Shown: piece after piece, positions 40,696 through 57,097 of the stretch
Numbering within the stretch: the first letter of the stretch is position 1
Layout: the number at the start of each line of letters is the position of its first letter
Source: Nitrospirales bacterium
Lineage (GTDB): Bacteria; Nitrospirota; Nitrospiria; Nitrospirales; UBA8639
NCBI GenBank assembly: GCA_965223295.1
Contig: CBDCWC010000003.1
Coordinates: forward strand, 1,504,001-1,568,000
DNA: 64,000 nt
Direction: 5' to 3'
Made by a program: the position numbers and the translations under genes
Notes under the pieces: model-generated
Seen by the model: only the letters and a program-made list of their open reading frames with translations
The model's database searches: none
Told to the model about the DNA's origin: nothing

Positions 40696-41373
40696 TTAGT
40701 TATTCTCGAAGGCTTGGCGAGTGGCAAAGACTTCCCCTGGATGGATCAACAACAAGCAGTCTCCATCAACGGGATCTTTGTGAAACAGCGCGAAGGCAAG
40801 GCAAAGCTGCGGCGTCGGTTCCGGGGGAAACTCTAAAAGTACGGGAACATCAATTAGGGGTGTGGGCTCCTTCAGACTGGCCAGGCGAAGTCGCACGGCA
40901 ACTAAGGTCTGGCGGATGCGGGTGTGAATGTGTTGTTCGGTAAGATCTGGAGAGGAAGTAATGTATTGCTCCCAGAGCGGATTCGTCATGCCTACACAAA
41001 AGTCTAAGCCGATACTTTGCGCCGATGGAGTCACATCTTTAAGAATCCCGGATTCGATGGCCTCTCGTCGTATGCGAATGGTGAACTGTTTCAGGTCTGG
41101 TGGGATTTCTTGAGCGTTCACCGAATCGGGAGTTGTCAATTCCAATACGCTATCGGAAGAAGAGTCTTCTCTATGGTCAATCAAAGCGGGCAATTCAGGT
41201 AGGGAAGGATCCTCTGAGACAGGAAGTTCAGAGGGGTCATTGCCAAGGGCTTGTATGATGCCTTCATAAACGGATTTGGCAGAAGCGGTCCAATTTTCAT
41301 CTTGAGGCAATCCACGAAAAGCGGCTTCTGAGGCCTTCTTTTCGTCATGCGTTAAAGGGCGTGGTGATATCAT
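40696..41373 (-). CDS. Hypothetical protein
   Basis: 225 aa ORF; two folded-looking segments joined by an acidic linker. Confidence 0.7.
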   Translation of the reverse strand: MISPRPLTHDEKKASEAAFRGLPQDENWTASAKSVYEGIIQALGNDPSELPVSEDPSLPELPALIDHREDSSSDSVLELTTPDSVNAQEIPPDLKQFTIRIRREAIESGILKDVTPSAQSIGLDFCVGMTNPLWEQYITSSPDLTEQHIHTRIRQTLVAVRLRLASLKEPTPLIDVPVLLEFPPEPTPQLCLAFALFHKDPVDGDCLLLIHPGEVFATRQAFENN

Positions 41374-41458
41374 ACTTACAAGGTAAGTTAATTTGACAGA
41401 AAGTCAAGTATTACCAATGAATTATTAATAAAAGTAAGTAAGTAGCCTTCTTCCTTGT

Positions 41459-41496
41459 GAGCGAAATCGCACTTTCATCACAGAGCGAAAACGCTC
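41459..41496. promoter_or_regulatory. Tandem enhancer pair D
   Basis: GAGCGAAATCGCAC (41459) and GAGCGAAAACGCTC (41483), 24 bp apart, followed by an AT-rich spacer. Confidence 0.78.
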
Positions 41497-41604
41497 TTTT
41501 TTATAATATCCACCATAAATATATAGAAAATAGTTGCATGAAAATTGTTAAATTATATAAATATTTCAATTGTTTATGTGTTTATTTACGACACAATTAA
41601 ATAT

Positions 41605-41620
41605 TGGAATATAATTTGCA
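41605..41620 (+). promoter_or_regulatory. Sigma54 promoter upstream of the micropeptide and the sulP-dabA-mrp cluster
   Basis: TGGAAT-ATAAT-TTGCA. Confidence 0.75.
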
Positions 41621-41663
41621 GAATAATCATTGTATTACGTTAATTTATTGTAAGGAGCAAACA

Positions 41664-41735
41664 ATGGATCCACTTTTTGATTTAGCCATGATCGCCGTAG
41701 TTGCCATTATGGTTGGTTTTAATATTTACGGGTAA
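41664..41735 (+). CDS. Putative 23-aa TM micropeptide MDPLFDLAMIAVVAIMVGFNIYG
   Basis: TAAGGAG RBS; directly behind the sigma54 promoter; followed by the hairpin ATTTCTCTT/AAGAGAAAT. Confidence 0.65.
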   Translation: MDPLFDLAMIAVVAIMVGFNIYG

Positions 41736-42143
41736 TTAACCTTCTTTCATTTCTCTTGTAGTAAAAAGAGAAATTGAGGCGGTGTTGATCCGGGATCCCT
41801 CCCCAGTTTCTTCCATTCTTCAGGTCCTCTCTTCAAATCAAAGTGTTTCTACGTAATTAAAACTTCATAAGATCAAGGTTTTTAAGGAATTTTTTCTAAA
41901 ATTTCTTGAGGTCGCCCACTCCCTCCTGGTATATCTCTTTGACATCTCAAGGAGTTACGTAAAGCCGATAGCTTAAAGTTAGAGGTTTTTCAAAAATTCC
42001 ATTTCCCTTAAACAGTATGGGTTCTATCCAAATTATCGAGTGACTGACTCTCAGGAAGAAAAAAGGGGTCGGTGTCAATGCAAGCCGGTTTGTGTTGCTG
42101 GAAAGTGCTCCGGTAACTGGGACCGGCTTTGTTGTATAAGGTT

Positions 42144-42390
42144 CTGTTGAAAAAAGCTGCCGCCTACTCCGCCGGAGTCACTGGATGGGCTACGAAGGCC
42201 GGGAGCGGCGTTCCTGCCTTCGCCGGGCCTCCTTCGCCGTAGTGGCTATGAAGGCTGAAAGCGGCTTCGCGTTTACGCGCAGGAGCGCTTCACCGCGCAG
42301 GCGAGCGGACTTTTTTAAAAGACCCGAGGCCTCTGACATGTGAAACCGCAGAGGCTAAATGTGGCCATTGATATCATCATTATTCAACAG
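42144..42390 (+). mobile_element. MITE-like repeat, family A, copy 7 (several nested modules)
   Basis: ctgttgaaaaaagctgccgcc ... tattcaacag; longest copy. Confidence 0.8.
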
Positions 42391-42519
42391 CCCCATTAAG
42401 AGTTGTCCACAAACAACAAAATGCTGTTGAAATTTGCGCGAAAGAGACTTCCGGCATCAGTTGGCTGATATCAAAATAATATAGGGCGATCCTTCTTCAT
42501 CAGTTTCTCAAATCCCATC

Positions 42520-44157
42520 ATGACCTCAAGCGAAAAGGACATTCCTAGAGGGCAGATTTCAGAATTCCCGAAACACTGGCAGGCGGATATGGTTTCGGGG
42601 TTTTTGGTTTTTTTGATCGCGCTTCCGCTGTGCTTGGGGATTTCTTTAGCCTGTGGCTACCCTGCGATTTCCGGGATTTTTACGGCGATAATTGGTGGGG
42701 TGCTGGCCACTTTTTTCAGTAACTCTGAGCTCACGATTAAAGGGCCGGCCGCGGGGCTCATTGTTATCGCTCTGGGATGTGTGACGGAATTTGGGTTTAC
42801 AGGTGGGGAAGACCCTGCTGCTGATCTTCAGGCCTATCGCTTGGCTCTTGGTGTTGGTGTCGCAGCTGGACTGATCCAAATTCTATTTGGAATAGGTCGG
42901 GCGGGAATTCTGGGGGAGTTTTTCCCGACTTCGGCGGTGCATGGCCTGCTCACTGCTATTGGCGTCATCATTATGGCCAAACAATTTCCGGTGGCCATGG
43001 GCCTGAGTCCTGCAGGAACGCCTTTGGAACTGCTGGCCAACATTCCACATTTTATTCTGAACATGAATCCCCTGGTCGGTGTGATTGGCGTGGTGAGTCT
43101 GGTCATCATGTTTGGGTATCCGTTTCTGAAGAACTCTCGGTTGACCGCCATCCCAGCGCCAATGCTGGTGTTATGTATCACAGTGCCTTTAGCTATGTAT
43201 TTCAATATTGGAGGCGAGCAGACGTATTCCTTCCAAGGACAGGACTATCCATTAGGAAAGAATTTTCTCGTGGCGGTTCCGGAGAATATGTTTCATGCTC
43301 TCACCTTCCCTGACTTTTCTGGTCTCGGCACAACGATAGGAATAAAATATGTGATCATGTTTGCTTTAATAGGGAGTATCGAATCTCTTCTCAGCGCCAA
43401 GGCGATTGATGAAATTGATCCGTGGAAAAGAAAAACGGATCATGATCGAGATATGCTCGCGGTGGGAGTTGGGAATACCCTTGCCTCGTTTGTGGGTGGT
43501 CTTCCCATGATTTCGGAAATCGTTCGCAGCAAGGCCAATATTGATAATGGGGCACGGACTCGATTTGCGAATATGTTTCACGGCCTGTTTCTCCTGGGGT
43601 TTGTGGCACTCATCCCGGGCCTCATCAATCAGATTCCCCTTGCGGCCCTTGGAGCCATGCTTGTCTTTACGGGGTTCCGACTAGCGTCTCCTCAAGAATT
43701 TGTCCACATGTGGCAAGTTGGACGTGAGCAATTTATTATTTTTGTCTCAACGGTCATTGGCGTCTTGTCGACTGATTTGCTGATGGGAATCGCGATTGGC
43801 ATTGGTGTAAATTTTTTGGTGCATCTGAAGAATGGAGCGCCTCCTAAGTCACTTCTGAAGACACAAGTTACGGTGGGACGGCAGGAAAAGGAAGGCGTTG
43901 TTGTTCGAGTCAAAGATTCGGCTATTTTTAGTACATGGATCGGTCTGAAAAAAACATTAGAACCCTTAGTGACAGAATCTCGCGTGATCCTGGATTTATC
44001 CGATACGGCTCTCGTTGACCACACGGTTATGTCTAAACTTCAAGATATGGAAAAGACCTTTCAGGAACATGGATCGACCCTAGTCCTTGTGGGATTAGAG
44101 CAGCATCAGCGACTGTCTGATCATCCTGCCGCAGCGAGAAAAAAGGTGCGAACATAG
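42520..44157 (+). CDS. SulP/SLC26 anion transporter (second subfamily)
   Basis: GFLVFLIALPLCLGIS, IKGPAAGL, IESLLSA and GGLPMISEIVRS; short STAS-like tail. Confidence 0.92.
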   Translation: MTSSEKDIPRGQISEFPKHWQADMVSGFLVFLIALPLCLGISLACGYPAISGIFTAIIGGVLATFFSNSELTIKGPAAGLIVIALGCVTEFGFTGGEDPAADLQAYRLALGVGVAAGLIQILFGIGRAGILGEFFPTSAVHGLLTAIGVIIMAKQFPVAMGLSPAGTPLELLANIPHFILNMNPLVGVIGVVSLVIMFGYPFLKNSRLTAIPAPMLVLCITVPLAMYFNIGGEQTYSFQGQDYPLGKNFLVAVPENMFHALTFPDFSGLGTTIGIKYVIMFALIGSIESLLSAKAIDEIDPWKRKTDHDRDMLAVGVGNTLASFVGGLPMISEIVRSKANIDNGARTRFANMFHGLFLLGFVALIPGLINQIPLAALGAMLVFTGFRLASPQEFVHMWQVGREQFIIFVSTVIGVLSTDLLMGIAIGIGVNFLVHLKNGAPPKSLLKTQVTVGRQEKEGVVVRVKDSAIFSTWIGLKKTLEPLVTESRVILDLSDTALVDHTVMSKLQDMEKTFQEHGSTLVLVGLEQHQRLSDHPAAARKKVRT

Positions 44158-44160
44158 GTC

Positions 44161-47100
44161 ATGAAAGATTCGATGACGGTTGAATCAGTGAGACAAGAGG
44201 TTTCTCCTTTGACCCAAGAAGAACGGAAAATGCTTGGTGCTGTCATTGAATCGGCCAGTGAGCCCATCGCCCCGTTTTGGCCCATGCGGACTATGGTGGC
44301 TCAAAACCCCATTCATGGCTTGGAATATCTTTCATTTGATGAGGCGGTTCGACAGGGCAAAGATCTTCTTGGAGGCAATGGTTATCTGCCGAATGAAGAA
44401 TATCGGCAATTCTATTTGGAAGGGCGAATCACTCTCGAAAGTATTCAACGGGCATTAATCCCCGTAGGACCTCGGCCCCAATCACAAGAACCGATCACGA
44501 TCGGAACGCGTCAATTTTCTCCTCAAGATATTTGGAAATGGCATCTGGTTCGCGGCTTCGAGGAGTTGGAACCTGTCCTCTTGCAATGGGAGCTCAGTGG
44601 ACGAGGAGCCATTGAGGAATTTCGTTCAGACTTTCCCAGTGAAGCCAAACATCGGATTATCCAACGAACGATTAAGGAATGTGAGCATTGTCGAGACTTT
44701 CCCGAAAAGGCCTATTTAACAAATCTATGGAATGCCACCTTATTTACATTAGGTCTTCATGATTCTATCTCGGAAGAAAAGACTGATCATGCCTCTGCTC
44801 AAAAAGAATTTTCTGCCCGTGCCATAGAAGAATCACCACTCGTCATTGATTTACCCGTTCGGCGAACGATGAGTGATTGGATCGAATGCTTGAGTAGTGT
44901 TCCTTTGGTCGAACAGATCAATCACCAAATGATTAAGTGGATTGCCGCTTTTGTTGACGAGGGGCAAGCAGGTTGGCAAATGCCATTCAGGGAGAAGGGC
45001 TTTTTCCTCGCGTGGCAGGACTTGGCTCAATTGGACTACTCTGGGCACTTCTTGGGGATTACTGACTTTCATCAGAAAGTTCAAGCGTTGCCTCCTGACC
45101 CTGAAGAGGTCATTGCTTTGTGTCTGCGCCGTCTTGGCGTTCCTTACGCACAATGGCAATCGTATCTTGCCCGTGAGCTCTCTCAACTGCCAGGATGGAC
45201 TCGATACATTCGGTGGTTGGGAGAACATCCTCTGTATCATGCTCAACGACAACATCCGATTGACACGAGACAGTATTTGGCGGTTCGACTGTTTTATGAA
45301 GTGGAATTGACTAACATTTGCTGTCGACAAGAATGGGGAATTGATGGAACTGTTTCAGCCATGACGGCATATTGGAAGGACCGATCTGAAGAATATCGCA
45401 ATCGAATAGGAGAAGGAGGGCATTCTATTGATCAAACAGAACGGATGATATGCCGAGACGCCTGGCGATTATTTCATCTCGCACAATTCCTTGAGTTATC
45501 TCCAATTGAAGTCCATGACCTATCACTTGCTGATGCTCAGAAGATGTTGCAATGGCTAGATGAATTTCCTGCTGATCAGCATAGTTCCGTGTGGCTTGAA
45601 GCCTATGAAGAATCGTTTCGGGCAGACATCCTAAGCAAGATCTCCGCGCATCGGGAGACCGTTCCAGCCTTAACGTCTCGTCCTCATGCGCAATTGGTCT
45701 TTTGTATCGATGTACGCTCTGAATCATTTCGCCGTCATATTGAAGCCCAAGGTCCTTACGAAACGTTCGGGTTCGCGGGGTTTTTTGGCATACCTCTGAG
45801 CCATCAAGTCTTTGATAGTGATCAGCGTTCCTTCTTGTGCCCTGTACTACTTACTCCTAACCATGCCGTCATGGAAATACCCCGATCTGGAGAGGAAACG
45901 GCGTTAGAAAAGTATTCTTCTGGTACTCGCTGGCATCAGCTGGGGCATCATTTCTTTCATGATCTGAAACATCATCCTATTGGGTCTATGATGGCAATTG
46001 ATGTGCTAGGACTCTTTTTTAGTCTGGGGTTGGTGGGAAAAACCCTATTCCAAAAAACATTTCAGGGGATTACCTCGAGCATCGAGCGTTGGTTCACCTA
46101 TAGAGTGCCGACTCAAATCGCGGTTTGCGCTCCCGTCGATCAGAAGAACCCAAAAGTCGGAGAAGTGCATGCAGAAGGGGTTCCCGTGGGTCTCGCTCAG
46201 GGGTTTTCTTTGGCAGAACGAGCCACCTTTATCGAAAACGGCTTACGCGCCATGGGACTTTCACAGAATTATGCGCGGCTCGTGTGCCTCTGTGGCCATG
46301 GCAGTGAGACAGACAACAATCCCTATTATGGCGCATTGGATTGTGGGGCCTGTGGAGGAGCACCCGGAGATGCGAATGCGCGGGTCTTTGCTGCAATGGC
46401 GAATGATCCTCAGGTTCGGCGTATCTTGAAACAAAATGGGTTGCCCATTCCAGACGATACGTGGTTCCTTCCTGGGAAACATAACACGACAACTGATCGA
46501 GTCGAGTTTTACGATCTAGAAGAATTACCTGGTACACATATTGAAGATTTGCGTGCGTTGAACAAAGATCTAGAAGCAGCTGGTGCGAATCAAGCCCTTG
46601 AACGTTGCCATCGCATTCCACGTGCCCCGGAAGAGATTTCTCCAGAGCAGGCCTTTGCTCATGTCATGGAGCGCAGTTGCGATTGGGCCAACCCTCGACC
46701 GGAATGGGGGTTAGCTGGGAATGGCGCCTTTCTTATCGGGAGACGGAAGCTGACGAAAGGTTTGGATTTAGGCGGTCGTGTGTTTTTGCATTCGTATGAT
46801 CCTCTTGCTGATCCCGAGGGAGCCATCCTTGAAAAAATCATGACCGCACCCTTAATTGTCGGCGAATGGATTAGCACCGGCTATTACTTTTCCGCTGTGG
46901 ATCCATGGACCTATGGCAGTGGTAGTAAAGTCTTGCACAATGTGGTTGGTGGTGTTGGAATGATGTTGGGAAGCCAAAGTGATTTGCAAATGGGCTTTCC
47001 TTTACAAACGGTGAATAACGGAGACGTTCACTATCACGAACCCATGCGGCTACTCGCCATCATTGAACATAAGCCGAGTGTGATCTCGTCTATCATTCAA

Positions 47101-47226
47101 AAACATGCGATCCTTCAGCGGCTATTTCATAACCAGTGGTTAAATCTTGTTGCGATCGATCCCCACACCTTTGCGTTTCATCGCTATTTTCCTGATGGCC
47201 AGTGGGAAGCTGTCACTCACAACTGA
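44161..47226 (+). CDS. dabA: DabA (DUF2309/UPF0753) inorganic-carbon pump, beta-CA-like subunit
   Basis: IAPFWP, FCIDVRSE, FAGFFG, GHGS, LDCGACGG, RPEWGL, LHSYD and HEPMRL motifs. Confidence 0.95.
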   Translation: MKDSMTVESVRQEVSPLTQEERKMLGAVIESASEPIAPFWPMRTMVAQNPIHGLEYLSFDEAVRQGKDLLGGNGYLPNEEYRQFYLEGRITLESIQRALIPVGPRPQSQEPITIGTRQFSPQDIWKWHLVRGFEELEPVLLQWELSGRGAIEEFRSDFPSEAKHRIIQRTIKECEHCRDFPEKAYLTNLWNATLFTLGLHDSISEEKTDHASAQKEFSARAIEESPLVIDLPVRRTMSDWIECLSSVPLVEQINHQMIKWIAAFVDEGQAGWQMPFREKGFFLAWQDLAQLDYSGHFLGITDFHQKVQALPPDPEEVIALCLRRLGVPYAQWQSYLARELSQLPGWTRYIRWLGEHPLYHAQRQHPIDTRQYLAVRLFYEVELTNICCRQEWGIDGTVSAMTAYWKDRSEEYRNRIGEGGHSIDQTERMICRDAWRLFHLAQFLELSPIEVHDLSLADAQKMLQWLDEFPADQHSSVWLEAYEESFRADILSKISAHRETVPALTSRPHAQLVFCIDVRSESFRRHIEAQGPYETFGFAGFFGIPLSHQVFDSDQRSFLCPVLLTPNHAVMEIPRSGEETALEKYSSGTRWHQLGHHFFHDLKHHPIGSMMAIDVLGLFFSLGLVGKTLFQKTFQGITSSIERWFTYRVPTQIAVCAPVDQKNPKVGEVHAEGVPVGLAQGFSLAERATFIENGLRAMGLSQNYARLVCLCGHGSETDNNPYYGALDCGACGGAPGDANARVFAAMANDPQVRRILKQNGLPIPDDTWFLPGKHNTTTDRVEFYDLEELPGTHIEDLRALNKDLEAAGANQALERCHRIPRAPEEISPEQAFAHVMERSCDWANPRPEWGLAGNGAFLIGRRKLTKGLDLGGRVFLHSYDPLADPEGAILEKIMTAPLIVGEWISTGYYFSAVDPWTYGSGSKVLHNVVGGVGMMLGSQSDLQMGFPLQTVNNGDVHYHEPMRLLAIIEHKPSVISSIIQKHAILQRLFHNQWLNLVAIDPHTFAFHRYFPDGQWEAVTHN

Positions 47227-47430
47227 GCAGACTAAGGCGATATGTGGTGAGGAAGAAATGTCGCACCGATAAAAGAACGAAAATTCTTTTAGGAATGCCG
47301 GATTAAATTTTATCCGCGCTAATAAACTGGTAGCTGTACAATCTCACTAGAACCGTCTAGATGATTTTTCGCTGAATTCCTTTCAGCTTCCATAAGATTT
47401 CGGGATAAGGGAATGAATGGTGCTACATAA

Positions 47431-47958
47431 ATGACAAGCAAGGGTTTTTCTCCAGGGGCCCGCCCTAGACCGATTTCCTCACAATTCTTGATACTAAAGA
47501 CCACGGCACTCTTTGTGTTGTGGATCATGTTATCTGCAAGTTTCGACTGGATCCATCTTGGATTGGGTTTGGTTCTCTCGTTTGCGGTAGCGTGGGTGAA
47601 CTCTGGCCACTCTCCCTTTGTTCCCAAATTTCGATTGTGGGGTAACATCATTCTCTATCTCCCTTGGCTTTTTGTGAAAATCGTCCAAAGCAGTCTTCAT
47701 CTATCAAAGCTCATTCTTCACCCCGCGCTTCCCATTAATCCTAGGTTGATCCACGTGGAGACGCAATTGGGACATCATGCAGCAGTTGTGCTTCTTGGTA
47801 ATTCCATTACGTTGACTCCTGGAACGATCACCGCGGAAGTTGAACGTAATACGCTCATTGTTCACGCCATGGATGAAGTTTCAGCGCAGGATGTCACAAG
47901 TAAGCGGATCGAATCCAAAATTGCTGCAATTTTTAAAGATGAAAAGCCGGATCTATGA
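47431..47958 (+). CDS. mrpE: Mrp Na+/H+ antiporter subunit E (start may be later)
   Basis: NSITLTPGT...VHA motif. Confidence 0.9.
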   Translation: MTSKGFSPGARPRPISSQFLILKTTALFVLWIMLSASFDWIHLGLGLVLSFAVAWVNSGHSPFVPKFRLWGNIILYLPWLFVKIVQSSLHLSKLILHPALPINPRLIHVETQLGHHAAVVLLGNSITLTPGTITAEVERNTLIVHAMDEVSAQDVTSKRIESKIAAIFKDEKPDL

Positions 47959-48221
47959 AAGTATTTCTGCTCTGTGTTTTGATCTTATTGGCTTTACTCA
48001 TTGGTTCGTATTTGTATCGTGTGCTTCAGGGGCCCACGATTTTTGATCGTGTATTGGGTCTCAATGGCATTTCTACCAAGGCGATTATTCTCTTGATTGT
48101 GATGGGTATGTACTTTGAGCGAATCGACATGTTTATCGATATCTCGACTGGGTATGCCCTATTGAATCTGGTGGGAGCTCTTGCCGTCGCAAAATTTCTG
48201 GAACAAAGAGGACTACCCTAG
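47955..48221 (+). CDS. mrpF: Mrp subunit F
   Basis: RVLQGPTIFDRV motif; 3 TM helices. Confidence 0.9.
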   Translation: MKVFLLCVLILLALLIGSYLYRVLQGPTIFDRVLGLNGISTKAIILLIVMGMYFERIDMFIDISTGYALLNLVGALAVAKFLEQRGLP

Positions 48222-48222
48222 C

Positions 48223-48522
48223 ATGGAAGTGACTGCTATCTCCTGTATTCTGGCTGGATTATTTTTCTTGATTGTTGCGGCGATTGGGGTGATTCGTCTG
48301 CCCGATGTGTTTAGTCGTTCTCACGCCGTTTCGCTTACAGACTCGTTAGGTGCCTTTCTGATGTTAGTGGGCATTGCGCTTCATGAGGGCCTGAGTACGA
48401 GTACCCTGAAAATTATTGCAGTCTTGGCATTACTCTATATTCAAAATCCGGTTATTGCCCATGCGACGGTTCGCGCCGCGATGCGAGCTGGCCTCAAACC
48501 GTGGAAACGAGAGACCTCATGA
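48223..48522 (+). CDS. mrpG: Mrp subunit G
   Basis: GVIRLPDVFSRSHA...DSLG...NPVIAHA; start at ATG 48223. Confidence 0.9.
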   Translation: MEVTAISCILAGLFFLIVAAIGVIRLPDVFSRSHAVSLTDSLGAFLMLVGIALHEGLSTSTLKIIAVLALLYIQNPVIAHATVRAAMRAGLKPWKRETS

Positions 48523-49049
48523 CCTTTTCGTATGAAATCCCCTTGCTCGTTCTTCTCCTTGCCACCGCAGCCGGTGCCATATTAGTCAAAGATCTCATCA
48601 GTGCGATCTTGCTCTTGGGGTCTTATAGTTTTTTTCTGGCCTTGGTATGGGCTTGGTTAGGAGCGGTGGATGTGGCGTTTGTCGAAGCAGTTGTTGGAGC
48701 TGGGTTAGCCACCGTGCTTTTTTTGCTCACCCTGTTTGGAACCGCACCAAAAGACAATCGTCTTAGGCGGCCACCACCGCCCATGGCAGCATTAATTGCT
48801 CTTCCACTGTTAGGCCTTCTCTTGCTCTATGCAGCAAACGATCTTCCTGAGTTTGGAGATCCATATTCTCCTGCAAGTGTTCATATTTCGCCGACCTATC
48901 TCGAACAGAGTTATGCGGATACTCATACACCAAATGTTGTGACCTCGGTGCTGATGGATTACCGCTCGCTCGATACGATGGTGGAAACCGTGGTGATTTT
49001 TACGGCAGGTATTGCCTGTGCCCTTTTGTTGAGGAGACAAACCTCATGA
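48519..49049 (+). CDS. DUF4040 plus MbhE-like subunit (stand-alone MrpA C-terminal part)
   Basis: A.DVAFVEAVVGAG and PNVVTSVLMDYRSLDTMVE motifs. Confidence 0.88.
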   Translation: MTFSYEIPLLVLLLATAAGAILVKDLISAILLLGSYSFFLALVWAWLGAVDVAFVEAVVGAGLATVLFLLTLFGTAPKDNRLRRPPPPMAALIALPLLGLLLLYAANDLPEFGDPYSPASVHISPTYLEQSYADTHTPNVVTSVLMDYRSLDTMVETVVIFTAGIACALLLRRQTS

Positions 49050-49498
49050 TTCAACCTCACGATAGTATCATTGTTCAGACCTTGGGACGTTTTCTCATTC
49101 CGGTAATCCAAATTTTTGGGCTGTACGTGTTGTTTTTCGGCCAATACGGTCCTGGTGGAGGATTTGTTGGAGGAGTGATCTTAGGGACGGGTATGATTTT
49201 ATCAGTGTTGATTTTTGGCCATGATGCATCTCGGAGTCAGGTGGCGAAAAAAGTATTGCACGGTGATGGAGTCGGCATGTTGATTTATGCTGGGGTGGGA
49301 GGCTTATGTATGATTGGGGGTGGAGAGTTTCTCAATTATGCCAATCTGGAGATTCCAGGGCTTGAGACAGCATCCCGCCGGTCATTGGGAATCATCTTGA
49401 CGCAAATTGGTGTGGCTGTGGATGTGGCTGTTACGGCGGTCTCCATTGTGTTCAGTCTTTCTGCTGAAGAAATTATGGAGGATTCGATGAATGGGTGA
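49046..49498 (+). CDS. mrpB: Mrp subunit B (MnhB)
   Basis: GPGGGFVGG motif. Confidence 0.88.
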   Translation: MIQPHDSIIVQTLGRFLIPVIQIFGLYVLFFGQYGPGGGFVGGVILGTGMILSVLIFGHDASRSQVAKKVLHGDGVGMLIYAGVGGLCMIGGGEFLNYANLEIPGLETASRRSLGIILTQIGVAVDVAVTAVSIVFSLSAEEIMEDSMNG

Positions 49499-49868
49499 TC
49501 TCTTTTCCGCCGTCTTTCAGCGTCCTAACTTTTTGACGTTTGTCATTATTTTCCTGTGGGGCTTTTATATCATGGTGACACGATATAACCTCGTCAAGAA
49601 ACTGGTCGGTTTGTATCTGGTGCAAACCAGCGTAATTTTTTTTCTGGTATCTATTAGTGCGAAGAAACACTCAACCGCTCCCGTTCTTCTGTCTACCACT
49701 GAAACCGTGCAAGCTATGAACTATGCGAATCCGTTGCCACATGTGCTGACGTTGACGGCTATTGTGGTTGGTGTCGCTACCTTGGGTGTGGCCTTGGCCT
49801 TGTGTGCTGCGATCTATCGACGATACGGCAGTCTTGATGAAGAAGAAATTCTAAAAAAATTAGAATGA
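49491..49868 (+). CDS. mrpC: Mrp subunit C
   Basis: NLVKKLVG and NPLPHVLTLTAIVVG motifs. Confidence 0.92.
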   Translation: MGDLFSAVFQRPNFLTFVIIFLWGFYIMVTRYNLVKKLVGLYLVQTSVIFFLVSISAKKHSTAPVLLSTTETVQAMNYANPLPHVLTLTAIVVGVATLGVALALCAAIYRRYGSLDEEEILKKLE

Positions 49869-51334
49869 CTCATCACTTTCCAGCCATTCTGTTTCTGCTC
49901 CCTTTGTTTGCGGCGATTTCCATGCCAGTGGTTTGTTTGAAACACCGAGAATGGAGTCGGCCTATCTCTCTGGCTGTACTCGGGGCTATGGTTGTGGTCT
50001 CCATTCTGAATCTCATCAGTGTCATCAATCACGGAGAAGTGCGATATGCCTTTAGTGGCTGGACTGCACCATTAGGCATTGAGTGGGTCGCAGATGGTTT
50101 AGCGAGCGTAATCCTTATGACATTGAGTCTCTTGGGTTTGCTGGCGTTGGTCTTTACCGGGCCTACTTCACCAAAAGATCTTGGTGGACGAATTGTTCAT
50201 TATTACATCTTGATCTTGCTGCTAATTTCCGCGCTCACTGGAATTGTGTTTGCAGGAGATTTATTTAATCTATTCGTATTTTTAGAAGTCGCAGCCATAT
50301 CCAGTTATGCACTCATTGGCGTGGCTGGAGGCAGAGCTCTATTCGCCGCTTTTCGTTATCTCGTGTTGGGAACGCTTGGGGCTTCCCTCTATTTATTAGG
50401 GGTGAGTTATTTCTACGCGGCCAGTGGGACGCTCAATATGGCAGATATGGCTCAGAAACTCCCCCAATTATTGACCTCGAAAGCTGTGGTCGGCGGGCTT
50501 CTTTTTATGTTCATAGGATTAGGCATCAAAATGGCTTTGGTGCCGTTCCATGCATGGCTGCCGGACGCCTACACGTATGCTCCGGAATCAATATCTCCTA
50601 TTTTGGCGGCATTGGTCACCAAGGTGGCATTATTAGGATGGGTCCGCATAATTTACTGGGTTCTGGGTGCCAAGGCCATCGTCTACGACATTCCTGTGCT
50701 CTTACTCGTGGGGATACTGGGCACTCTGGCGGCGGTCATTGGTGCGGTTCTCGCCCTGTCTCAGCGAAACATTAAAATGATGTTTGCCTATGGGGGGATT
50801 TCTCACATTGGCATCATTCTTATTGGCGTGAGTCAGGGTAACCATACAGGATTTGTGGGGGGTGTCTTCTATTTACTGAACGATGCAGTTATGCAAGCAG
50901 CATTGTTTTTTTTAGCAGGGGTAGCCATTTGCCAGTATGGCGTTCGGACCGTAGAAGATATTGGGCAAATTGGGAGACAAGCGCCTTGGTTTACGGGGGC
51001 TTTGGTGGTCGTGGCGCTAGGTATGATAGGCCTTCCTCCGACTGGGGGATTTTTTGGAAAATGGTATATCATTCTTGGAGCACTTGAAGCGAACAATTAC
51101 ATCGCAGTCGCCGCAGTTTTACTCTCGACTCTCCTGACGCTTGCCTATTTCGTGAAACTATTTGAGGCGATCTTTCGTCAACCAGCAACTCAATCGGAGA
51201 TGCTTCCAGGGGAGATTCCTTTCCCTTATAAACTGAGTGTGGGGATGACAGCCGCGGCCGTGATGATCTTAGGTCTGTTGAGTGACCCCATTGTTCAGTT
51301 TTTATTGAACCAGGCATTGCCACCCGGTATTTGA
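49865..51334 (+). CDS. mrpD: Mrp subunit D (antiporter-like)
   Basis: GDLFNLFVFLEV, KMALVPFHAWLPDAY and GLPPTGGFFGKW motifs. Confidence 0.92.
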   Translation: MTHHFPAILFLLPLFAAISMPVVCLKHREWSRPISLAVLGAMVVVSILNLISVINHGEVRYAFSGWTAPLGIEWVADGLASVILMTLSLLGLLALVFTGPTSPKDLGGRIVHYYILILLLISALTGIVFAGDLFNLFVFLEVAAISSYALIGVAGGRALFAAFRYLVLGTLGASLYLLGVSYFYAASGTLNMADMAQKLPQLLTSKAVVGGLLFMFIGLGIKMALVPFHAWLPDAYTYAPESISPILAALVTKVALLGWVRIIYWVLGAKAIVYDIPVLLLVGILGTLAAVIGAVLALSQRNIKMMFAYGGISHIGIILIGVSQGNHTGFVGGVFYLLNDAVMQAALFFLAGVAICQYGVRTVEDIGQIGRQAPWFTGALVVVALGMIGLPPTGGFFGKWYIILGALEANNYIAVAAVLLSTLLTLAYFVKLFEAIFRQPATQSEMLPGEIPFPYKLSVGMTAAAVMILGLLSDPIVQFLLNQALPPGI

Positions 51335-51342
51335 AGGAAGCT

Positions 51343-53439
51343 ATGGCTATCTTTGTTTTGATTCCTTTGCTCCCTCTCCTTGCCTCGGTTCTCCTTCTTC
51401 TTGGAGGACGGCGATGGGGTGAGCAAAGTCACCGGATCGGAATTCCTGCTATAGGCCTGTCGTTTGGTTTGTCAGTGCTCGCTTTTCTTGAGGTCTTGCG
51501 TAACGGGCCTTTCTCTCTCTCTCTTTATCGTTTCTTTCAGTCTGGATCGTTATCCATTGACTTAGGTTTGTTTGTTGATCAACTCACCGTCCTGCTTTTG
51601 CTCTTGGTCACAGGGGTGAGTGGTGTGGTGCATGTGTATTCTTCCCGGTACATGATTGGAGACCCACGATACAACCGATTCTTTGCGGTCATCGCGTTGT
51701 TTACCTTTTCTATGGTGTTGCTTGTCATGAGTAACAACCTGTTGATGTTGTTGGTCAGTTGGGAAATTATGGGGATCTGTTCGTATCTCTTGATTTCCCA
51801 TGCCGCACAGCGACCCTCGGCAGGTCGGGCAGCGACCAAGGCGTTTTTGGTCAATGCGGTGGCGGATGTCGGGCTCAGTTTCGGAATTATTTTGACGTTT
51901 TTCACATTCGGCACGCTTGACATCCAAACTATCCTCACTGAGGCCGAAAGCATGCAGCATCAGAGGATCAATATTCTGGGATGGATGGGAGGAAATCTCC
52001 TCGTCAATCCAGTAACGCTTATTCCTTTCTTTTTATTCATCGGGGCTATGGGTAAGTCAGCTCAAATGCCGTTTCATATATGGTTGCCGTTTGCCATGGA
52101 AGCCCCCACTCCGGTGTCGGCATTGATTCACGCGGCGACCATGGTAAACGCCGGTCCGTTCCTGCTTGTGCGATTGAGCCCCTTGCTCGTCCTTTCTCCG
52201 TTCACTATGACCTTCATTGCGGTCATTGGAGCCACTACTGCGCTGTTCGCTGGTATTGTTTCCCTGACGCAGTCTGACATTAAAAAGATTTTGGCATATT
52301 CCACGATTAGCCAAATTGGTTTCATGATTATGACCTGCGGTTTAGGTGCATTCGTCGTGACGATTTTTCACCTGCTTGCTCATGGTTGTTATAAAGCGTT
52401 CTTCTTTCTTTCAACGGGGAATGCGCTTCGATCCGTCGCTCAAGGTCATGCCCATAGAGAGCAGGAGTATCATGCACCTCAAGGTATGGGCGTGTTGTAT
52501 GGTGGTGCGCTGTTATTGGCGTTGATTCCTCCGATTATTCTGTTTTCAGGTGCGTATGAAAACTTGTGGGGAGTGATGGGATTTGCTTCTGCCACAATTG
52601 GATTCCGCGTCATTGGTCTGATCACAGTGTTTGTGGCTTCTATGTATCTCTTCCGAAGCGTCACGTCGTTATTTGTTCATGGTCCAAAGACATATTGGCC
52701 GGTATCAGGCCAATCGGCGTTGCAGACACAATCCATTCGACCACAGTTTGTGAATGGTTCGATAATGGTTGGTCTTCTCATTGTCACGGTGATCGTAGGA
52801 GTAGCATTGACGCTGTTTTGGAGTTGGTTTGTCAGCTTCCTTGCTCCCGCATTAGCCCTTGCTGGTGTTGCGACGAATGAAGGAACGGTTGGGATCGGTT
52901 TCTCGATTTGGCTTCTGGGGGCTATTGGGATGGCCATTTCGGGATGGGTTTGTGCGTATTCGTGCGCTCAACCTGGCTCGCAAGTTGTCTGGTCAACTAG
53001 TAAAAACACAAGGTTATACATGCTCTTCTGGAATAAATGTTATTTTGATGAATTTTATGATGCCTATTTAGTGAACCCGACCATTCGATTTTCCCATTGG
53101 CTCTGGCACATGATTGATGTTGGGGTCATCGATAGATTCATACATTCCATCGCAACCTATTCCATTCTCTTTGCACGTTGGCTCTGGCGGATTGTGGATA
53201 TCAAAGGTATTGATCGAATGGTGATGGGTATTGGACGACAGAGCGTTGGTATGAGTGGATGGCTTTGGAAAGTGGTGGATATTCGATGGTTGGAAAAGAC
53301 AGTCAGTCAAGTGGGTAGCCAAGCAGATACGGCAGGGCAATTATTGCAAGAGGTCGAACCTCGTACCATTCAACATCAATTACTCGTCATGATACTTTGG
53401 CTGGTCTTGGCAACCGGACTATTATATATCTTGGTTTAA
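51343..53439 (+). CDS. NuoL/DabB-like proton-translocating subunit with an extended lateral helix
   Basis: WEIMG, GKSAQMPFHIWLPFAMEAPTPVSALIHAA and HLLAHGCYKAFFFL; NuoL-type tail NK.YFDE.Y with three WLW..D...ID units. Confidence 0.88.
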   Translation: MAIFVLIPLLPLLASVLLLLGGRRWGEQSHRIGIPAIGLSFGLSVLAFLEVLRNGPFSLSLYRFFQSGSLSIDLGLFVDQLTVLLLLLVTGVSGVVHVYSSRYMIGDPRYNRFFAVIALFTFSMVLLVMSNNLLMLLVSWEIMGICSYLLISHAAQRPSAGRAATKAFLVNAVADVGLSFGIILTFFTFGTLDIQTILTEAESMQHQRINILGWMGGNLLVNPVTLIPFFLFIGAMGKSAQMPFHIWLPFAMEAPTPVSALIHAATMVNAGPFLLVRLSPLLVLSPFTMTFIAVIGATTALFAGIVSLTQSDIKKILAYSTISQIGFMIMTCGLGAFVVTIFHLLAHGCYKAFFFLSTGNALRSVAQGHAHREQEYHAPQGMGVLYGGALLLALIPPIILFSGAYENLWGVMGFASATIGFRVIGLITVFVASMYLFRSVTSLFVHGPKTYWPVSGQSALQTQSIRPQFVNGSIMVGLLIVTVIVGVALTLFWSWFVSFLAPALALAGVATNEGTVGIGFSIWLLGAIGMAISGWVCAYSCAQPGSQVVWSTSKNTRLYMLFWNKCYFDEFYDAYLVNPTIRFSHWLWHMIDVGVIDRFIHSIATYSILFARWLWRIVDIKGIDRMVMGIGRQSVGMSGWLWKVVDIRWLEKTVSQVGSQADTAGQLLQEVEPRTIQHQLLVMILWLVLATGLLYILV
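53089..53331 (+). repeat. Three tandem 81-bp / 27-aa intragenic repeats
   Basis: FSHWLWHMIDVGVIDR... / FARWLWRIVDIKGIDR... / MSGWLWKVVDIRWLEK... starting at 53089, 53170 and 53251. Confidence 0.85.
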
Positions 53440-53472
53440 CCATCTGTTTCTTAAAGAATAAAGATTAAACAT

Positions 53473-54978
53473 ATGGGCATATTGATGGATCACATCATTA
53501 GTTGGATGGTTGCTGTTCCTTTTTTAGGAATCGGGATTCTTGCGTTTGTCCGTGATGAAGAATGGATTAGACGAGTCGCCTTTGGTGCCACCATGGTGGA
53601 GTTTTTCCTCTCGATGGTCCTTTGGAGCAGTTTTGATTTTACCCAACAAGGTATGCAATTCGTTGAACGTGTGGAGTGGATGCCCACCTTCAATATTCAA
53701 TATGCCGTTGGCGTGGATGGGATCAGTATCCTGTTAGTCATCCTTACTGCTCTTCTGTGCCCACTTTGTGTTCTGTGTTCGTGGAACGCTATCACTACGC
53801 GAGTGCGAGCGTATCTGTCGCTGATCTTGCTTGTTGAAGGTGCGATGATTGTTGTCTTTACAGCTTTAGATCTTTTCCTCTTCTTCATGTTGTGGGAACT
53901 CACCATGATTCCCATGTATTTTATGATTATTTTGTGGGGAGGTCCGAATCGTATCACAGCAGGAATTAAATTTGTCTTGTACAGTCTGACGGGCAGCTTG
54001 TTATTGCTCGTGGGAATTCTTGGCCTCTACTTAGAAGGTGGGCATACCTACGATCTGTTGGTTCTCAGCGAACAAACGTATTCCTCTAGAACGCAATTCT
54101 GGCTATTTCTTGCGCTCTTCTTAGCGTTTGCCATCAAAATGCCCATGGTGCCATTTCACACCTGGTTGCCTGACGCACATTCCGAGGCCCCAACAGTCGG
54201 TAGCGTCATTTTAGCTGGAGTGCTGTTGAAAATGGGGGGCTATGGATTCTTGCGCTTTTGTTTGCCAATGTTTCCCGAAGCTTCGGTGAAATTTGCGCCG
54301 TATATATTATGGCTCTCTGTCATTGCCATTATCTATGGAGGCTACATGGCTTTGGCACAGTCTGATCTCAAAAAACTCGTCGCGTATTCCTCGGTCTCAC
54401 ATATGGGATTTGTCACTCTTGGGATCTTTGTTTTTAACAGTCAGGGAATCCAGGGCGCCATTTTACAAATGTTTAATCACGGGATTACCACTGCGGCTTT
54501 ATTTATTTCAGTGGGGCAACTCTATGATCGCACCCACAGCCGAGCCATCGGTGATTACGGGGGGTTGCATAAGCCCATGCCTAGGTTCGTAGCATTATTC
54601 TTTTTGTTCTCAGTTGCGTCATTTGGACTGCCGGGTACCTGTAATTTTATTGGTGAATTTTTGGTGCTTGTTGGGACGTCCTATGTCAATTTCGCGATGG
54701 TCTTGATTTCTATGGGAGGGATTGTCTTAGCCGCGGCCTATATGCTGTGGATGCTACAACGTTTGGCTTTAGGCGAACCGAACAAAGAAGTTGTGAGAGT
54801 GCTGCCAGACTTAACAAGTCGAGAATTAGCCACCGTAATTCCTCTAGCGGTACTTGTCCTCTGGATCGGACTATATCCGGGCCCATTGATGGAGATGATG
54901 GATGCGAGTGTGACTCATCTCGTTCAGCAGGTCGCTGCGTATGAATCCGCTCTTCCTGAGCACACGGTCTTACGTTAA
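53473..54978 (+). CDS. nuoM: NuoM-like antiporter subunit
   Basis: GVDGIS, WE...PMY, KMPMVPFHTWLPDAH.EAP, LKMGGYG, DLKKLVAYSSVSHMG and F.GEF motifs. Confidence 0.9.
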   Translation: MGILMDHIISWMVAVPFLGIGILAFVRDEEWIRRVAFGATMVEFFLSMVLWSSFDFTQQGMQFVERVEWMPTFNIQYAVGVDGISILLVILTALLCPLCVLCSWNAITTRVRAYLSLILLVEGAMIVVFTALDLFLFFMLWELTMIPMYFMIILWGGPNRITAGIKFVLYSLTGSLLLLVGILGLYLEGGHTYDLLVLSEQTYSSRTQFWLFLALFLAFAIKMPMVPFHTWLPDAHSEAPTVGSVILAGVLLKMGGYGFLRFCLPMFPEASVKFAPYILWLSVIAIIYGGYMALAQSDLKKLVAYSSVSHMGFVTLGIFVFNSQGIQGAILQMFNHGITTAALFISVGQLYDRTHSRAIGDYGGLHKPMPRFVALFFLFSVASFGLPGTCNFIGEFLVLVGTSYVNFAMVLISMGGIVLAAAYMLWMLQRLALGEPNKEVVRVLPDLTSRELATVIPLAVLVLWIGLYPGPLMEMMDASVTHLVQQVAAYESALPEHTVLR

Positions 54979-55036
54979 ATCATCGTTGTACAGATCATTT
55001 CAATGGAGCAGCATTTCCATTATGATGAGATGCTAT

Positions 55037-56461
55037 CTAAGATTGTCTTTCCTGGTGGCGCAAAAGCATTTCATAATTCTGTTGGTAGAGTTGGGCGGTG
55101 GGATGATCAATGCCGAACGCTTCAGTAATGATTGGAATAGCGCGTTCATACAACGTGAGGGCCTCTTGAGTGTGCCCTTGAAGTTTCAAGACAGAGGCAA
55201 GGTTGTTCAACGTTGAAGCTACTTTAGGATGGTGAAGGCCTAGGGATTTTTCTCTGATTTCTAGGGCCTCTTCATAAAGGCGTCGAGCTTGGATGAGTTG
55301 ACCCTGCCTCTGCCGCAAGCCTGCATAGTTGGTCAAAAGAGTCGCCACTTGTAAATGGTCTGATCCAAGGTTTTCACGAGCACGGGACAGGGCCTCGAGG
55401 TAAAGAGATTCGGCTTTCGAGAACTGGTCCCGGCTTTGATGAAGTTCAGCCACATTATTTAATATCGTCACATGTTGATGGGGATGGGGGTTTGGGGATC
55501 GGTATAAAAGGATCAGGGCTTCTTTGTAGTGGTCATGTGCGAGGGTGTATTGCTGCTGTTCTTGGTACAAGCTCCCCAAGTTTTGTTGCAGTGTAATCTT
55601 AGAAGAAAAGTCAGAATATGGGAGGCGTTCAACGATGTCTAATGCTTGCTTGTAAAGCGACTCGGCGGGTGTATATTCCTGTTGTATGTGATGGAGCCGT
55701 GCCGCATTGTTCAAGACTCTGACTAATTGCGGGTCTACCCCTGAAGCCTTCTTGAGGTATCCAATAGCTTGCCGATATTCCTGTTGGGCCTCAATGTATC
55801 GGCCTTGCGCTTGAAGCACTTCTCCTAATGTATTGATCGTAATTCCTAACGTGCTGTAGGGAGGGTGTTTCCGTTGTTCCAACAAAGCAAGAGCTCGACG
55901 GATAGAGATTTCAGATTTAGAAAATTGTTCTTGTTTCCAATAGAGCTCGCCAAGATTGGTGATTGTTGAGGCCATCAGAAGGGTATCAGGAGGTTTTTGT
56001 TGTTCCAAAATTTCTAATGCCCGTTCTAGTAACCTTTCAGCTTCATCGAGTTTTCCTTGTGTTCGATAAATAATAGCTAGATTGTTCAGGCTCGTCGCCA
56101 GCTCAGGGTGGGATGCCCCAAGTGTTTTTTCTAATAATTCAATGGTCTGGTGGTAATCGGTCTCAGCTTGCCCCAAGAGCCCTAGGGCATATTGTGTTCG
56201 GGCCATATGGTAATGACTATTGGCTAAGCGGAGGTTGTCCGTCTTGAGTGCATGCGCTGATTCTTTGGCGGCATTGAAATGTTCTAGGGCTTCTGTGAAT
56301 TGTCTTCGATCGTAGGCTTTTGTCCCTTCGTCAATGGCCAATTCCCATGAATCGATATTGTGGGAACAGCCCGCGAAGATTCCCGAAAAGACTACAAATC
56401 CTAAGCTAAGGATATTCAGAAACCACCGTCTCAAAATTGAATGTAGGAAAGGCATCATCAT
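55037..56461 (-). CDS. Tetratricopeptide-repeat lipoprotein (kinesin light chain-type TPR)
   Basis: FAGC lipobox; repeated HP..A..LNNLA units. Confidence 0.88.
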   Translation of the reverse strand: MMMPFLHSILRRWFLNILSLGFVVFSGIFAGCSHNIDSWELAIDEGTKAYDRRQFTEALEHFNAAKESAHALKTDNLRLANSHYHMARTQYALGLLGQAETDYHQTIELLEKTLGASHPELATSLNNLAIIYRTQGKLDEAERLLERALEILEQQKPPDTLLMASTITNLGELYWKQEQFSKSEISIRRALALLEQRKHPPYSTLGITINTLGEVLQAQGRYIEAQQEYRQAIGYLKKASGVDPQLVRVLNNAARLHHIQQEYTPAESLYKQALDIVERLPYSDFSSKITLQQNLGSLYQEQQQYTLAHDHYKEALILLYRSPNPHPHQHVTILNNVAELHQSRDQFSKAESLYLEALSRARENLGSDHLQVATLLTNYAGLRQRQGQLIQARRLYEEALEIREKSLGLHHPKVASTLNNLASVLKLQGHTQEALTLYERAIPIITEAFGIDHPTAQLYQQNYEMLLRHQERQS

Positions 56462-57033: not shown

Positions 57034-57097
57034 ATAAAAAATTAAATATTTCCTATGGGCTGCAGGTTTGTGATGAGATCTATGTGGATGGAGGAGT

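Follow-up and report, generated by a model that had tools for sequence, protein, structure and literature searches.

A 64,000-nucleotide stretch of the genome of a Nitrospirales bacterium (contig CBDCWC010000003.1, positions 1,504,001 to 1,568,000; hereafter the window) carries a run of genes in which dabA, encoding the carbonic-anhydrase-like subunit of the DAB inorganic carbon pumps, is followed by homologues of all the Mrp antiporter subunits and by genes for a NuoL-type (L) and a NuoM-type (M) protein. We propose that their products form one DabA-capped complex resembling the group-3 Mrp antiporters, working as a vectorial carbonic anhydrase driven by an ion gradient, and we put the probability of this reading at roughly 60%. 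A hybrid DabA/Mrp machine had already been suggested from the DNA letters alone (the sequence-only reading). It is supported by the conserved link between the genes, the co-occurrence of intact dabA with Mrp in two phyla, the residue pattern of L and a structural model of DabA with L, whereas assembly into a single complex, coupling to Na+ and the direction of flow are what we infer. The direct results are the gene content, the conservation of the link, the co-loss of its parts, the residue patterns of L, M, the MrpD-like subunit (D) and DabA, and a DabA-L model that passed its controls.

The run consists of 11 co-directional open reading frames (ORFs) on the plus strand at window positions 42520-54978, named from Pfam and NCBIfam matches (lengths in amino acids, aa):

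42520-44157, plus strand: SulP-family anion transporter with a STAS domain, 545 aa; PF00916 (E = 3e-56) and PF01740
44161-47226, plus strand: DabA, beta-carbonic-anhydrase-like, 1021 aa; PF10070 (E = 2e-260)
47431-47958, plus strand: MrpE-like, 175 aa; PF01899 (E = 4.5e-32); sole copy in the genome
47955-48221, plus strand: MrpF-like, 88 aa; PF04066 (E = 2e-13); overlaps the end of mrpE by 4 nt
48181-48522, plus strand: MrpG-like, 113 aa; PF03334 (E = 2e-21); TIGR01300 at 74 bits against a cut-off of 63
48501-49049, plus strand: MbhD+MbhE-type, 182 aa; PF13244, PF20501 and a weak PF00499; NF009159 at 168 bits against a cut-off of 141
49046-49498, plus strand: MrpB-like, 150 aa; PF04039 (E = 1e-22)
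49491-49868, plus strand: MrpC/NuoK-like, 125 aa; PF00420 (E = 1e-20); top NCBIfam models are MrpC
49865-51334, plus strand: MrpD-like (D), antiporter-like, 489 aa; PF00361; top NCBIfam models are MrpD
51331-53439, plus strand: NuoL-type (L), 702 aa; TIGR01974 at 458 bits against a cut-off of 407.5
53473-54978, plus strand: NuoM-type (M), 501 aa; PF00361 and PF01059

These positions and identities bear out the co-directional, mostly overlapping run described in the sequence-only reading, with its six small Mrp subunits and three antiporter-like subunits. Taking the starts given by the ORF caller, successive overlaps of 4-41 nt join all the genes from mrpE through L; the starts of mrpG (TTG) and of the MbhD+MbhE gene (GTG), which yield the longest overlaps, are uncertain. 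Gaps of 204 nt and 33 nt lie between dabA and mrpE and between L and M, respectively. Homologues of all the subunits MrpA to MrpG are encoded, MrpA being represented in two pieces: the NuoJ-like MbhD+MbhE protein, which matches residues ~600-790 of the NCBIfam MrpA models and corresponds to the C-terminal domain, and L, the equivalent of the N-terminal domain. As had also been claimed, no redox or hydrogenase family was detected in the 11 cluster genes or the eight flanking ORFs scanned, and a quinone/redox module (NuoH, B, C, D, I and others) was likewise not found in this set. The flanking ORFs comprise TPR proteins, a beta-helix protein, an OmpA/MotB-like protein, NhaB and one ORF with no family match. 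We regard the SulP protein as a candidate bicarbonate transporter; its scores on the NCBIfam BicA and DauA models fall far under their cut-offs.

The host genome (3.78 Mb, 100% complete) contains no second copy of any small Mrp subunit, making the window cluster its only Mrp. A second dabA lies in a DAB1-type operon encoding DabB (564 aa; hereafter DabB1), a 358-aa protein that occupies the DabC position and matches no Pfam family, DabA (1081 aa) and P-II, with a gene for an HtrA-like protease adjoining (locus L003, G000:C3:128000-147000, positions 8354-14904, minus strand). Two nuo operons are also present outside the cluster. One of these, with two NuoM-like genes, runs over G000:C3:1499156-1505860 and ends in window positions 1-1860, ~40 kb 5' of the cluster. 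L is 41% and 37% identical to the two host NuoL proteins and 35% identical to DabB1, while M is 57% identical to the NuoM of one nuo operon and D only ~28% identical to any Nuo paralogue in the genome. ATP-citrate lyase is present and the RuBisCO large subunit was not found in the host genome; the loci most closely related to this one bear the labels Nitrospirales and Nitrospina. From the ATP-citrate lyase and these labels, the host is probably a marine nitrite oxidiser with a reductive tricarboxylic acid (TCA) cycle, and on the same two observations we reject the heterotrophic lifestyle that the missing RuBisCO might have suggested.

The link between dabA and the Mrp genes is conserved. A scan of one genome per species gave 70 loci with a relative of the window DabA (49-88% identity), mostly from Nitrospirales and Nitrospinota, with two from Bryobacterales and one from a gammaproteobacterium of the Rariloculaceae. 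The 11 window proteins were compared with these loci, requiring at least 40% identity and the same strand, with the following outcome:

43 loci: the nine downstream genes complete and in order, no more than 600 nt from dabA
7 loci: all nine genes after a gap of ~2 kb
9 loci: the correct gene prefix until the contig ends
4 loci (L009, L037, L059, L025): the genes after an insert of 4-10 kb
4 loci: the locus ends within 486 nt past dabA and is uninformative
3 loci: no Mrp genes within 10 kb

Loss of dabA-mrp synteny in other genomes had been set beforehand as the finding that would tell against a hybrid machine; instead, Mrp genes lie downstream of dabA at 63 of the 66 informative loci, which span four phylum-level groups, and the reading was not refuted. 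At three loci with an insert (L009, L037 and L059, from genomes G275, G186 and G271), dabA and mrpE are separated by a whole DAB1 operon in opposite orientation; in L025 the place is taken by a helicase gene. The ~2-kb gap of L021 holds a gene for a 510-aa HtrA-like serine protease (a trypsin domain and two PDZ domains). A gap of the same size was also seen in L050, L061, L062, L069, L072 and L073. A SulP homologue stands upstream on the same strand in 35 of the 70 loci, a count that includes loci with short flanks, and it is mostly absent in Nitrospina.

Viewed from the Mrp side the association is similarly tight. MrpE scores over its family cut-off in 22 of 81 Nitrospirales genomes, always as one copy. 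Leaving aside the window's genome, its family accounts for 27 of the genomes, of which 18 have MrpE. For 20 of the 21 Nitrospirales MrpE genes with a known dabA position, mrpE lies no more than 10 kb downstream of a dabA of ~1010-1060 aa on the same strand; the MrpE gene of G018 lies at a contig start. Among 61 Nitrospinota genomes, counting DabA where it is at least 64% identical to the window protein, 29 have both MrpE and this type of DabA, two MrpE only, two DabA only and 28 neither, and the two genes are adjacent in 28 of the 29 (in G402 they are on separate short contigs). Related genomes are not independent, and these tallies describe a pattern and are not a statistical test. The two Nitrospinota genomes with MrpE only contain a distant Mrp-like cluster, 25-47% identical, with three MrpD-like subunits and no NuoL-type subunit. 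Distant clusters with the order E-F-G-A(C)-B-C followed by three MrpD-like genes, again with neither dabA nor a NuoL-type gene, were seen at the Nitrospinota loci L104, L105, L107 and L108, and in G398 and G428 a distant dabA-less Mrp-like cluster occurs as a second cluster beside the DabA-linked one. Searches of the Bryobacterales and Rariloculaceae genomes (of unknown completeness) that carry the DabA-linked cluster turned up neither RuBisCO nor ATP-citrate lyase; the cluster is not confined to autotrophs.

The loss of the arm is accompanied by the loss of dabA. Nine genomes of the window's family have no MrpE. In none of them is a second dabA intact (seven retain fragments and two retain nothing), and the DAB1 dabA is intact in all nine. 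G088 and G096 have the DAB1 copy only. The fragments in G071, G165, G228 and G328 cover profile positions 1-265/277, with a TGA inside in three of them; G299 has two fragments, G180 a dabA in three frameshifted pieces (locus L070) and G237 one in two pieces (locus L058), these two loci being matched to their genomes by identical coordinates. In Nitrospinota, the dabA reading frame of G397, which also has no MrpE, ends at 740 aa, and the copy in G401 is cut by the contig end. Among the sampled genomes, window-type dabA was intact only in those that have the Mrp block, so this type of dabA decays in the absence of the arm. The N-terminal fragments may all trace to one deletion in a single ancestor, and the independent co-loss events may therefore be few, though at least three. 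A different rearrangement is found in G120 (locus L022), where an intact dabA and an intact E-F-G-A(C)-B-C-D-L-M block are both kept, 260 kb apart. This genome has no DAB1 and no DabB orthologue, and its NuoL-like genes are two of nuo type and L, which makes L the only NuoL-like protein outside its nuo operons.

The properties of L, M and D are those expected of neighbours in an array. L matches Nad5/NuoL entries in the PDB at ~270 bits, compared with 135 bits for DabB2 and 130 bits for MrpA, and its 458 bits on the NuoL model stand against no more than 234 bits on the MrpA models, which places it outside the MrpA-type large subunits. It lies outside the DabB clade as well: L is 702 aa long rather than ~520-560 aa, has a helix span of 114 aa (below) where members of that clade have only a short axial helix, and is encoded 4.1 kb past dabA rather than adjacent to it. 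Aligned to E. coli NuoL, the key residues of L and of the host DabB1 compare as follows:

E. coli NuoL E144: L E145, host DabB1 Q141
E. coli NuoL D178: L D179, host DabB1 D175
E. coli NuoL K229: L K242, host DabB1 K235
E. coli NuoL H334: L H347, host DabB1 H339
E. coli NuoL H338: L H351, host DabB1 H343
E. coli NuoL K342: L K355, host DabB1 K347
E. coli NuoL K399: L A408, host DabB1 A402
E. coli NuoL D400: L Y409, host DabB1 H403

Both K399 and D400, on transmembrane helix 12 (TM12), are missing in all six aligned L proteins, and L has an 11-residue deletion just ahead of position 408. At the same time L keeps the TM5 Glu, the TM7 Lys, an extended lateral helix and a C-terminal transmembrane helix (TM16), whereas the host DabB1 has neither the TM5 Glu nor the lateral helix. 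By its residues, therefore, L is a hybrid that joins a NuoL-type entry side to a DabB-type exit side. The sequence-only reading had arrived at a related view by a partly different route. Its motif HLLAHG.YKA, taken as a mark of DabB, did not hold up, as HLLAHGCYKA is common to true NuoL proteins (the equivalents of H334, H338 and K342) and is thus only weakly DabB-like. Of the distal MGGL...GF.SK segment said to be missing, the MGGL part is in fact kept as GMGVL, while a loss is real in the form of the 11 residues and the TM12 Lys/Asp. The NuoL-type lateral helix that it had noted is present, and longer than in NuoL. Measured from the start of the lateral helix to the last transmembrane helix, the spans are:

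E. coli NuoL: 54 aa
host NuoL, ordinary nuo operon: 60 aa
host NuoL, operon with two NuoM genes: 81 aa
window L: 114 aa
other L proteins of the window type: 109-115 aa in 9 of 11 measured, with one of 84 aa and one of 141 aa
L proteins of a second, 'type II' arm (see below): 55-56 aa (4 of 7 loci measured)

The lateral helix of the NuoL from the two-NuoM operon also extends ~21-27 residues beyond the canonical length. DabB2 has neither a lateral helix of the long form nor the last transmembrane helix. In complex I, such a helix holds NuoL to the adjacent subunits, and that of L may reach along its own neighbours. Compared with E. coli NuoM and NuoN, M has the Glu/Lys/Lys of NuoM together with its TM12 Glu, and D has the Glu/Lys/Lys/Lys pattern of NuoN and MrpD. 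A trio of L-M-N type with conserved Glu and Lys residues and a lateral helix, as in complex I, is thus present.

The trees show how the two halves of the cluster have been inherited. In a quick maximum-likelihood tree, the Mrp-linked L proteins form a group of their own (Shimodaira-Hasegawa-like approximate likelihood ratio support, SH-aLRT, of 91), with L054 unresolved. This group stands beside NuoL (87) and DabB (99) within a clade (99) that leaves two MrpA' sequences outside, and the tree does not resolve the order in which the three groups branch; a third MrpA' row (L098) represents a wrong reading frame with a branch length of 10 and was disregarded. The Mrp-linked DabA proteins, with the unlinked G120 copy among them, make up one clade (96), which neighbours that of the DAB1 DabA proteins (99); both stand apart from the two-gene DabB-DabA type (100). 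The 'type II' arm was seen at loci L021, L029, L038, L062, L063, L069 and L073; its small subunits and D are 45-60% identical to those of the window and its L is 644-647 aa long, the accompanying DabA still being 68-72% identical. The DabA of L038 and L029 groups with that of other Nitrospina, and their L with the type II L of Nitrospirales, so the arm, L included, has been exchanged as a unit between Nitrospirales and Nitrospina, independently of dabA.

DabA itself retains its zinc ligands and a membrane finger. The sequence-only reading had called its zinc motifs intact, and FCIDVRSE, GHGS and LDCGAC, as well as DW...RPEWGL, do align to DabA2 of PDB 9rd0. The zinc ligands C515, D517, H713 and C728, whose roles we take from the DAB preprints, are invariant in 45 sequences. 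A conserved hydrophobic hairpin at ~590-630 contains the only strongly hydrophobic stretch of the protein (~605-632) and corresponds to the membrane finger; its residue D614 is kept in at least 90% of the 45 sequences and aligns opposite a Glu in the host's own DAB1 DabA. In DAB2, the finger is described as entering DabB2 between TM11-14, with Glu444 of DabA2 replacing Lys399/Asp400 of NuoL (10.64898/2026.03.13.711513). D614 is presumably the equivalent of Glu444; DabA2 did not align across the finger stretch.

A structural model supports the binding of DabA to L. With each chain modelled from its own alignment, L(110-550) and DabA(465-1021) gave interface scores (ipSAE) of 0.74, 0.74 and 0.76, the best of three controls reaching 0.00; the runs agreed in at least 84% of their contacts, with a predicted local distance difference test score (pLDDT) of at least 81 for the partners. 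The score mark is reached by 58 of 80 solved complexes and by two of 110 mismatched pairs, benchmark counts that hold only roughly for user-supplied alignments. The modelled contact brings DabA 604-621, including D614, to L 346-354 (the His-His-Lys helix) and 428-432, on TM11-14, with further DabA contacts at 718-723, 842-843 and 924-940. These contacts match elements named in both DAB structure preprints. DAB structures have already been solved, so the pass may reflect that likeness.

Together, these observations enable us to propose a mechanism. The products would form one membrane complex of ~10 subunits in which L, M and D are aligned as NuoL, NuoM and NuoN are in complex I, with the arm running on into the Mrp small-subunit module (the MrpA C-terminal piece, B, C, E, F and G). 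DabA would sit on the cytoplasmic face of the distal L, which would take the role of DabB. It is plausible that the helical hairpin of DabA is inserted into L, where Asp614 would stand in for the lost TM12 Lys/Asp and join the central His-His-Lys proton path. In this model, ions would flow down their gradient, with H+ entering through L, M and D as in Mrp and Na+ being moved by the small-subunit module. This flow would switch the buried zinc site, resulting in one-way hydration of CO2 and the trapping of bicarbonate in the cytoplasm. The SulP protein encoded upstream may import bicarbonate, possibly with Na+ that the arm would then export. With slightly less assurance, we favour a broader formulation: a complex-I-like arm free of redox subunits, made of an L-M-N-type trio and the Mrp sodium module, in which a Na+ gradient, a H+ gradient or both would drive a carbonic anhydrase at the distal tip. 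This ten-subunit 'Mrp-DAB' supercomplex would be convergent with NDH-1MS/CupA, and gene transfer would have carried it among marine nitrite oxidisers as well as other bacteria. In its boldest form, the entry of Na+ rather than of H+ would power carbon capture at seawater pH.

Several results weigh against a single DabA-capped complex. With 204 nt between them, dabA is not translationally coupled to the arm; intervening genes or a gap part dabA from mrpE in 11 of the 70 loci, and in G120 the separation reaches 260 kb. Inheritance ties L and M to the Mrp genes instead of to dabA, as both the G120 split and the comparison of the L and DabA trees indicate, and the type II L proteins of both phyla group together while the DabA tree follows the host. 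Moreover, dabA looks split in G148, G385 and G431 though the Mrp block is kept, which reflects either assembly errors or an arm that works without DabA. On the structural side, the AlphaFold2 model of L has a mean pLDDT of 61, falling below 50 over residues 622-702 (the lateral helix), and serves for secondary structure only. The only interface modelled is that of DabA with L, the one that resembles the solved DAB complexes and whose pass may mirror them.

The best of the alternatives, although in our view unlikely, is that two machines share one regulon: DabA and L, perhaps with M, would be a DAB-type CO2 pump, and MrpD with the six small subunits a separate Na+/H+ antiporter recycling the Na+ imported by SulP. 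Characterised DABs function with two or three subunits, other genes often lie between dabA and mrpE, and clusters exist in which DabA is accompanied by a DabB-like and three NuoM-like proteins and no Mrp small subunits (locus L083, and clade C as outlined in the COGNAT study, PMC5700660). Cooperation of BicA with Mrp/NhaB has also been proposed for a matching Nitrospira locus and for a cyanobacterium, as outlined in PMC7784846. Against this alternative, splitting or recombination of the cluster leaves L and M beside the Mrp genes rather than beside dabA, and L retains array features: its TM5 Glu and TM7 Lys, its long lateral helix and its terminal transmembrane helix would serve for clamping to, and communication with, neighbours. 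An Mrp set deprived of L would, furthermore, have no subunit of MrpA-N/NuoL type, and the distant clusters that share this gene order but have no DabA encode three MrpD-like subunits instead. By the start given by the ORF caller, L also overlaps the end of mrpD.

Less probable still is that the nine membrane genes make a self-sufficient group-3 Mrp Na+/H+ antiporter for salt and pH homeostasis, to which DabA is loosely attached or merely co-regulated; its CO2 hydration would then provide or use up protons in the cytoplasm, with no mechanical coupling. As the only Mrp of a marine organism, the cluster would be expected to have a housekeeping role, and the published genome papers interpret such a locus in this way in the passages devoted to it (PMC7784846, PMC3578206). 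One review (PMC5703873) states that a cyanobacterial group-3 Mrp has Na+/H+ antiporter activity in E. coli, and the block persists beside an apparently split dabA in the three genomes mentioned above. Such an antiporter is, however, difficult to reconcile with the loss of the TM12 Lys/Asp, used by NuoL for its outer half-channel, from all six aligned L proteins, and with a DabA finger whose conserved Asp is predicted to fill the vacated place. Nor would it account for window-type dabA being intact only where the block is present in the sampled genomes.

A reversed machine, in which the DabA reaction would drive ion export to conserve energy, or would dehydrate imported bicarbonate to supply CO2 to reductive TCA enzymes, suits a host with ATP-citrate lyase and no RuBisCO found, whose key carboxylases would use CO2, but is very improbable: CO2 hydration near equilibrium yields little energy, characterised DABs accumulate bicarbonate and are halted by an uncoupler, and the cluster also occurs in genomes in which neither RuBisCO nor ATP-citrate lyase was found. 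Ion export driven by the protein had been proposed in 2017, before the function of DabA was known, in the text of the COGNAT paper (PMC5700660).

The surroundings of the cluster provide further observations. On its 3' side, window positions 55037-59920 carry a TPR protein (minus strand), an OmpA/MotB-like protein (plus strand) and NhaB (minus strand). On its 5' side, 785 nt ahead of sulP, a 23-codon ORF with an AAGGAG ribosome-binding site (41664-41735, plus strand) encodes a hydrophobic peptide found at the same place in 15 related Nitrospirales loci with 57-96% amino acid identity; ~400 nt 3' of this ORF are also conserved at the DNA level. The peptide could be a small membrane subunit or a leader peptide. 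Within the sulP leader, a G+C-rich stretch of ~145 nt (42161-42306) is missing in the closest relative, L028, which elsewhere matches at 89-93%, and may be a small inserted repeat. A search of the 1.3 kb 5' of sulP (41300-42600) against Rfam returned nothing at E <= 0.1. A scan of 41300-55400 for promoters and terminators gave counts no higher than in shuffled controls, which bears neither way on co-transcription, and found no convincing terminator in the gap between dabA and mrpE.

Each half of this system, the DabA pump and the Mrp-type locus, is already in print. Daebeler et al. (2020; PMC7784846) interpreted the Nitrospira locus as a Na+/H+ antiporter aiding BicA, and Luecker et al. (2013; PMC3578206) described an 'eight subunit Mnh-type antiporter' in Nitrospina gracilis; the passages on these loci mention neither DabA nor DUF2309. 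The COGNAT paper of 2017 (PMC5700660) places dabA (ybcC) upstream of a nuoL homologue, with SulP and NuoM genes, in the text on its clade C. No text linking DabA to Mrp was found in the literature searched, which did not extend to subscription journals, and supplementary figures (Fig. S1 of PMC5700660, Fig. S8 of PMC7784846) may show the gene.

Nitrospina and the marine Nitrospirales are responsible for most ocean nitrite oxidation and for dark-ocean carbon fixation, and their acquisition of inorganic carbon has barely been described. If true, the wiring of DabA to an entire arm of Mrp type would add a third architecture to the DAB pump family. Such a system would be a natural experiment for the long-standing question of how conformational or electrostatic signals pass along complex-I/Mrp arrays, since its output would be a simple, assayable reaction in place of quinone chemistry. 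The genes annotated as 'Mnh/Mrp antiporter' and 'NuoL/NuoM' in these genomes would need re-annotation, and the cluster would constitute a carbon-capture module that is compact, independent of redox chemistry and open to testing in E. coli.

In the cyanobacterial NDH-1MS complex, CupA, a vectorial CO2-hydrating protein unrelated to DabA, sits on the distal NuoL-type subunit NdhF3 of a complex-I-like arm, and the machine is driven by electron transfer. The window cluster, in contrast, is devoid of a redox module, and its genes match no Pfam family beyond those listed above. Locus L083 (G262:C39, positions 3917-13311, minus strand), from another family of the same phylum, consists of overlapping genes for a NuoM-like protein, a DabA of 1095 aa, a DabB-like protein of 521 aa and two more NuoM-like proteins; unlike the window it has no Mrp small subunits, and it represents a further multi-subunit DAB variant. 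Mrp small subunits likewise go unmentioned in the main text on COGNAT clade C (PMC5700660). The locus of 'Ca. Nitrospira alkalitolerans', as set out in the text of PMC7784846, matches the window in its nhaB, mrp genes, nuoM/nuoL-like genes after mrpD, bicA and motB, the NhaB and OmpA/MotB-like genes just downstream of our cluster being the neighbours named there.

With the group-3 Mrp of Aphanothece halophytica (mrpCD1D2EFGAB, as presented in the review PMC5703873), the window shares the same subunit set, the short MrpA and the presence of more than one MrpD-like subunit, and its order E-F-G-A-B-C-D-L-M is a rotation of the cyanobacterial group-3 order. It departs from that system in that its two extra antiporter-like subunits are of NuoL and NuoM type, with L grouping with NuoL and DabB and not with MrpA, and in the attached dabA. 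With DAB2/MpsAB (DabA2-DabB2 of Halothiobacillus neapolitanus, PDB 9rd0; 10.64898/2026.03.13.711513) it shares, going by the description of that structure, the zinc ligands, DW...RPEWGL, the acidic membrane finger, a NuoL-like partner likewise devoid of K399/D400 and, in prediction, contacts on TM11-14. The partner differs: the window L is 702 aa long, has the TM5 Glu and an extended lateral helix, and does not belong to the DabB clade; its gene lies 4.1 kb past dabA, from which seven Mrp genes separate it, and precedes a NuoM-type gene. In DAB1 (DabB-DabC-DabA of Thermocrinis albus, as reported in 10.64898/2026.05.01.722082), a third membrane subunit occupies the place of NuoM beside NuoL, where the window has a full NuoM-type gene after L; DabC is half-sized and without the proton-path residues, all of which are present in M, and Mrp small subunits are a feature of the window cluster that DAB1 does not share.

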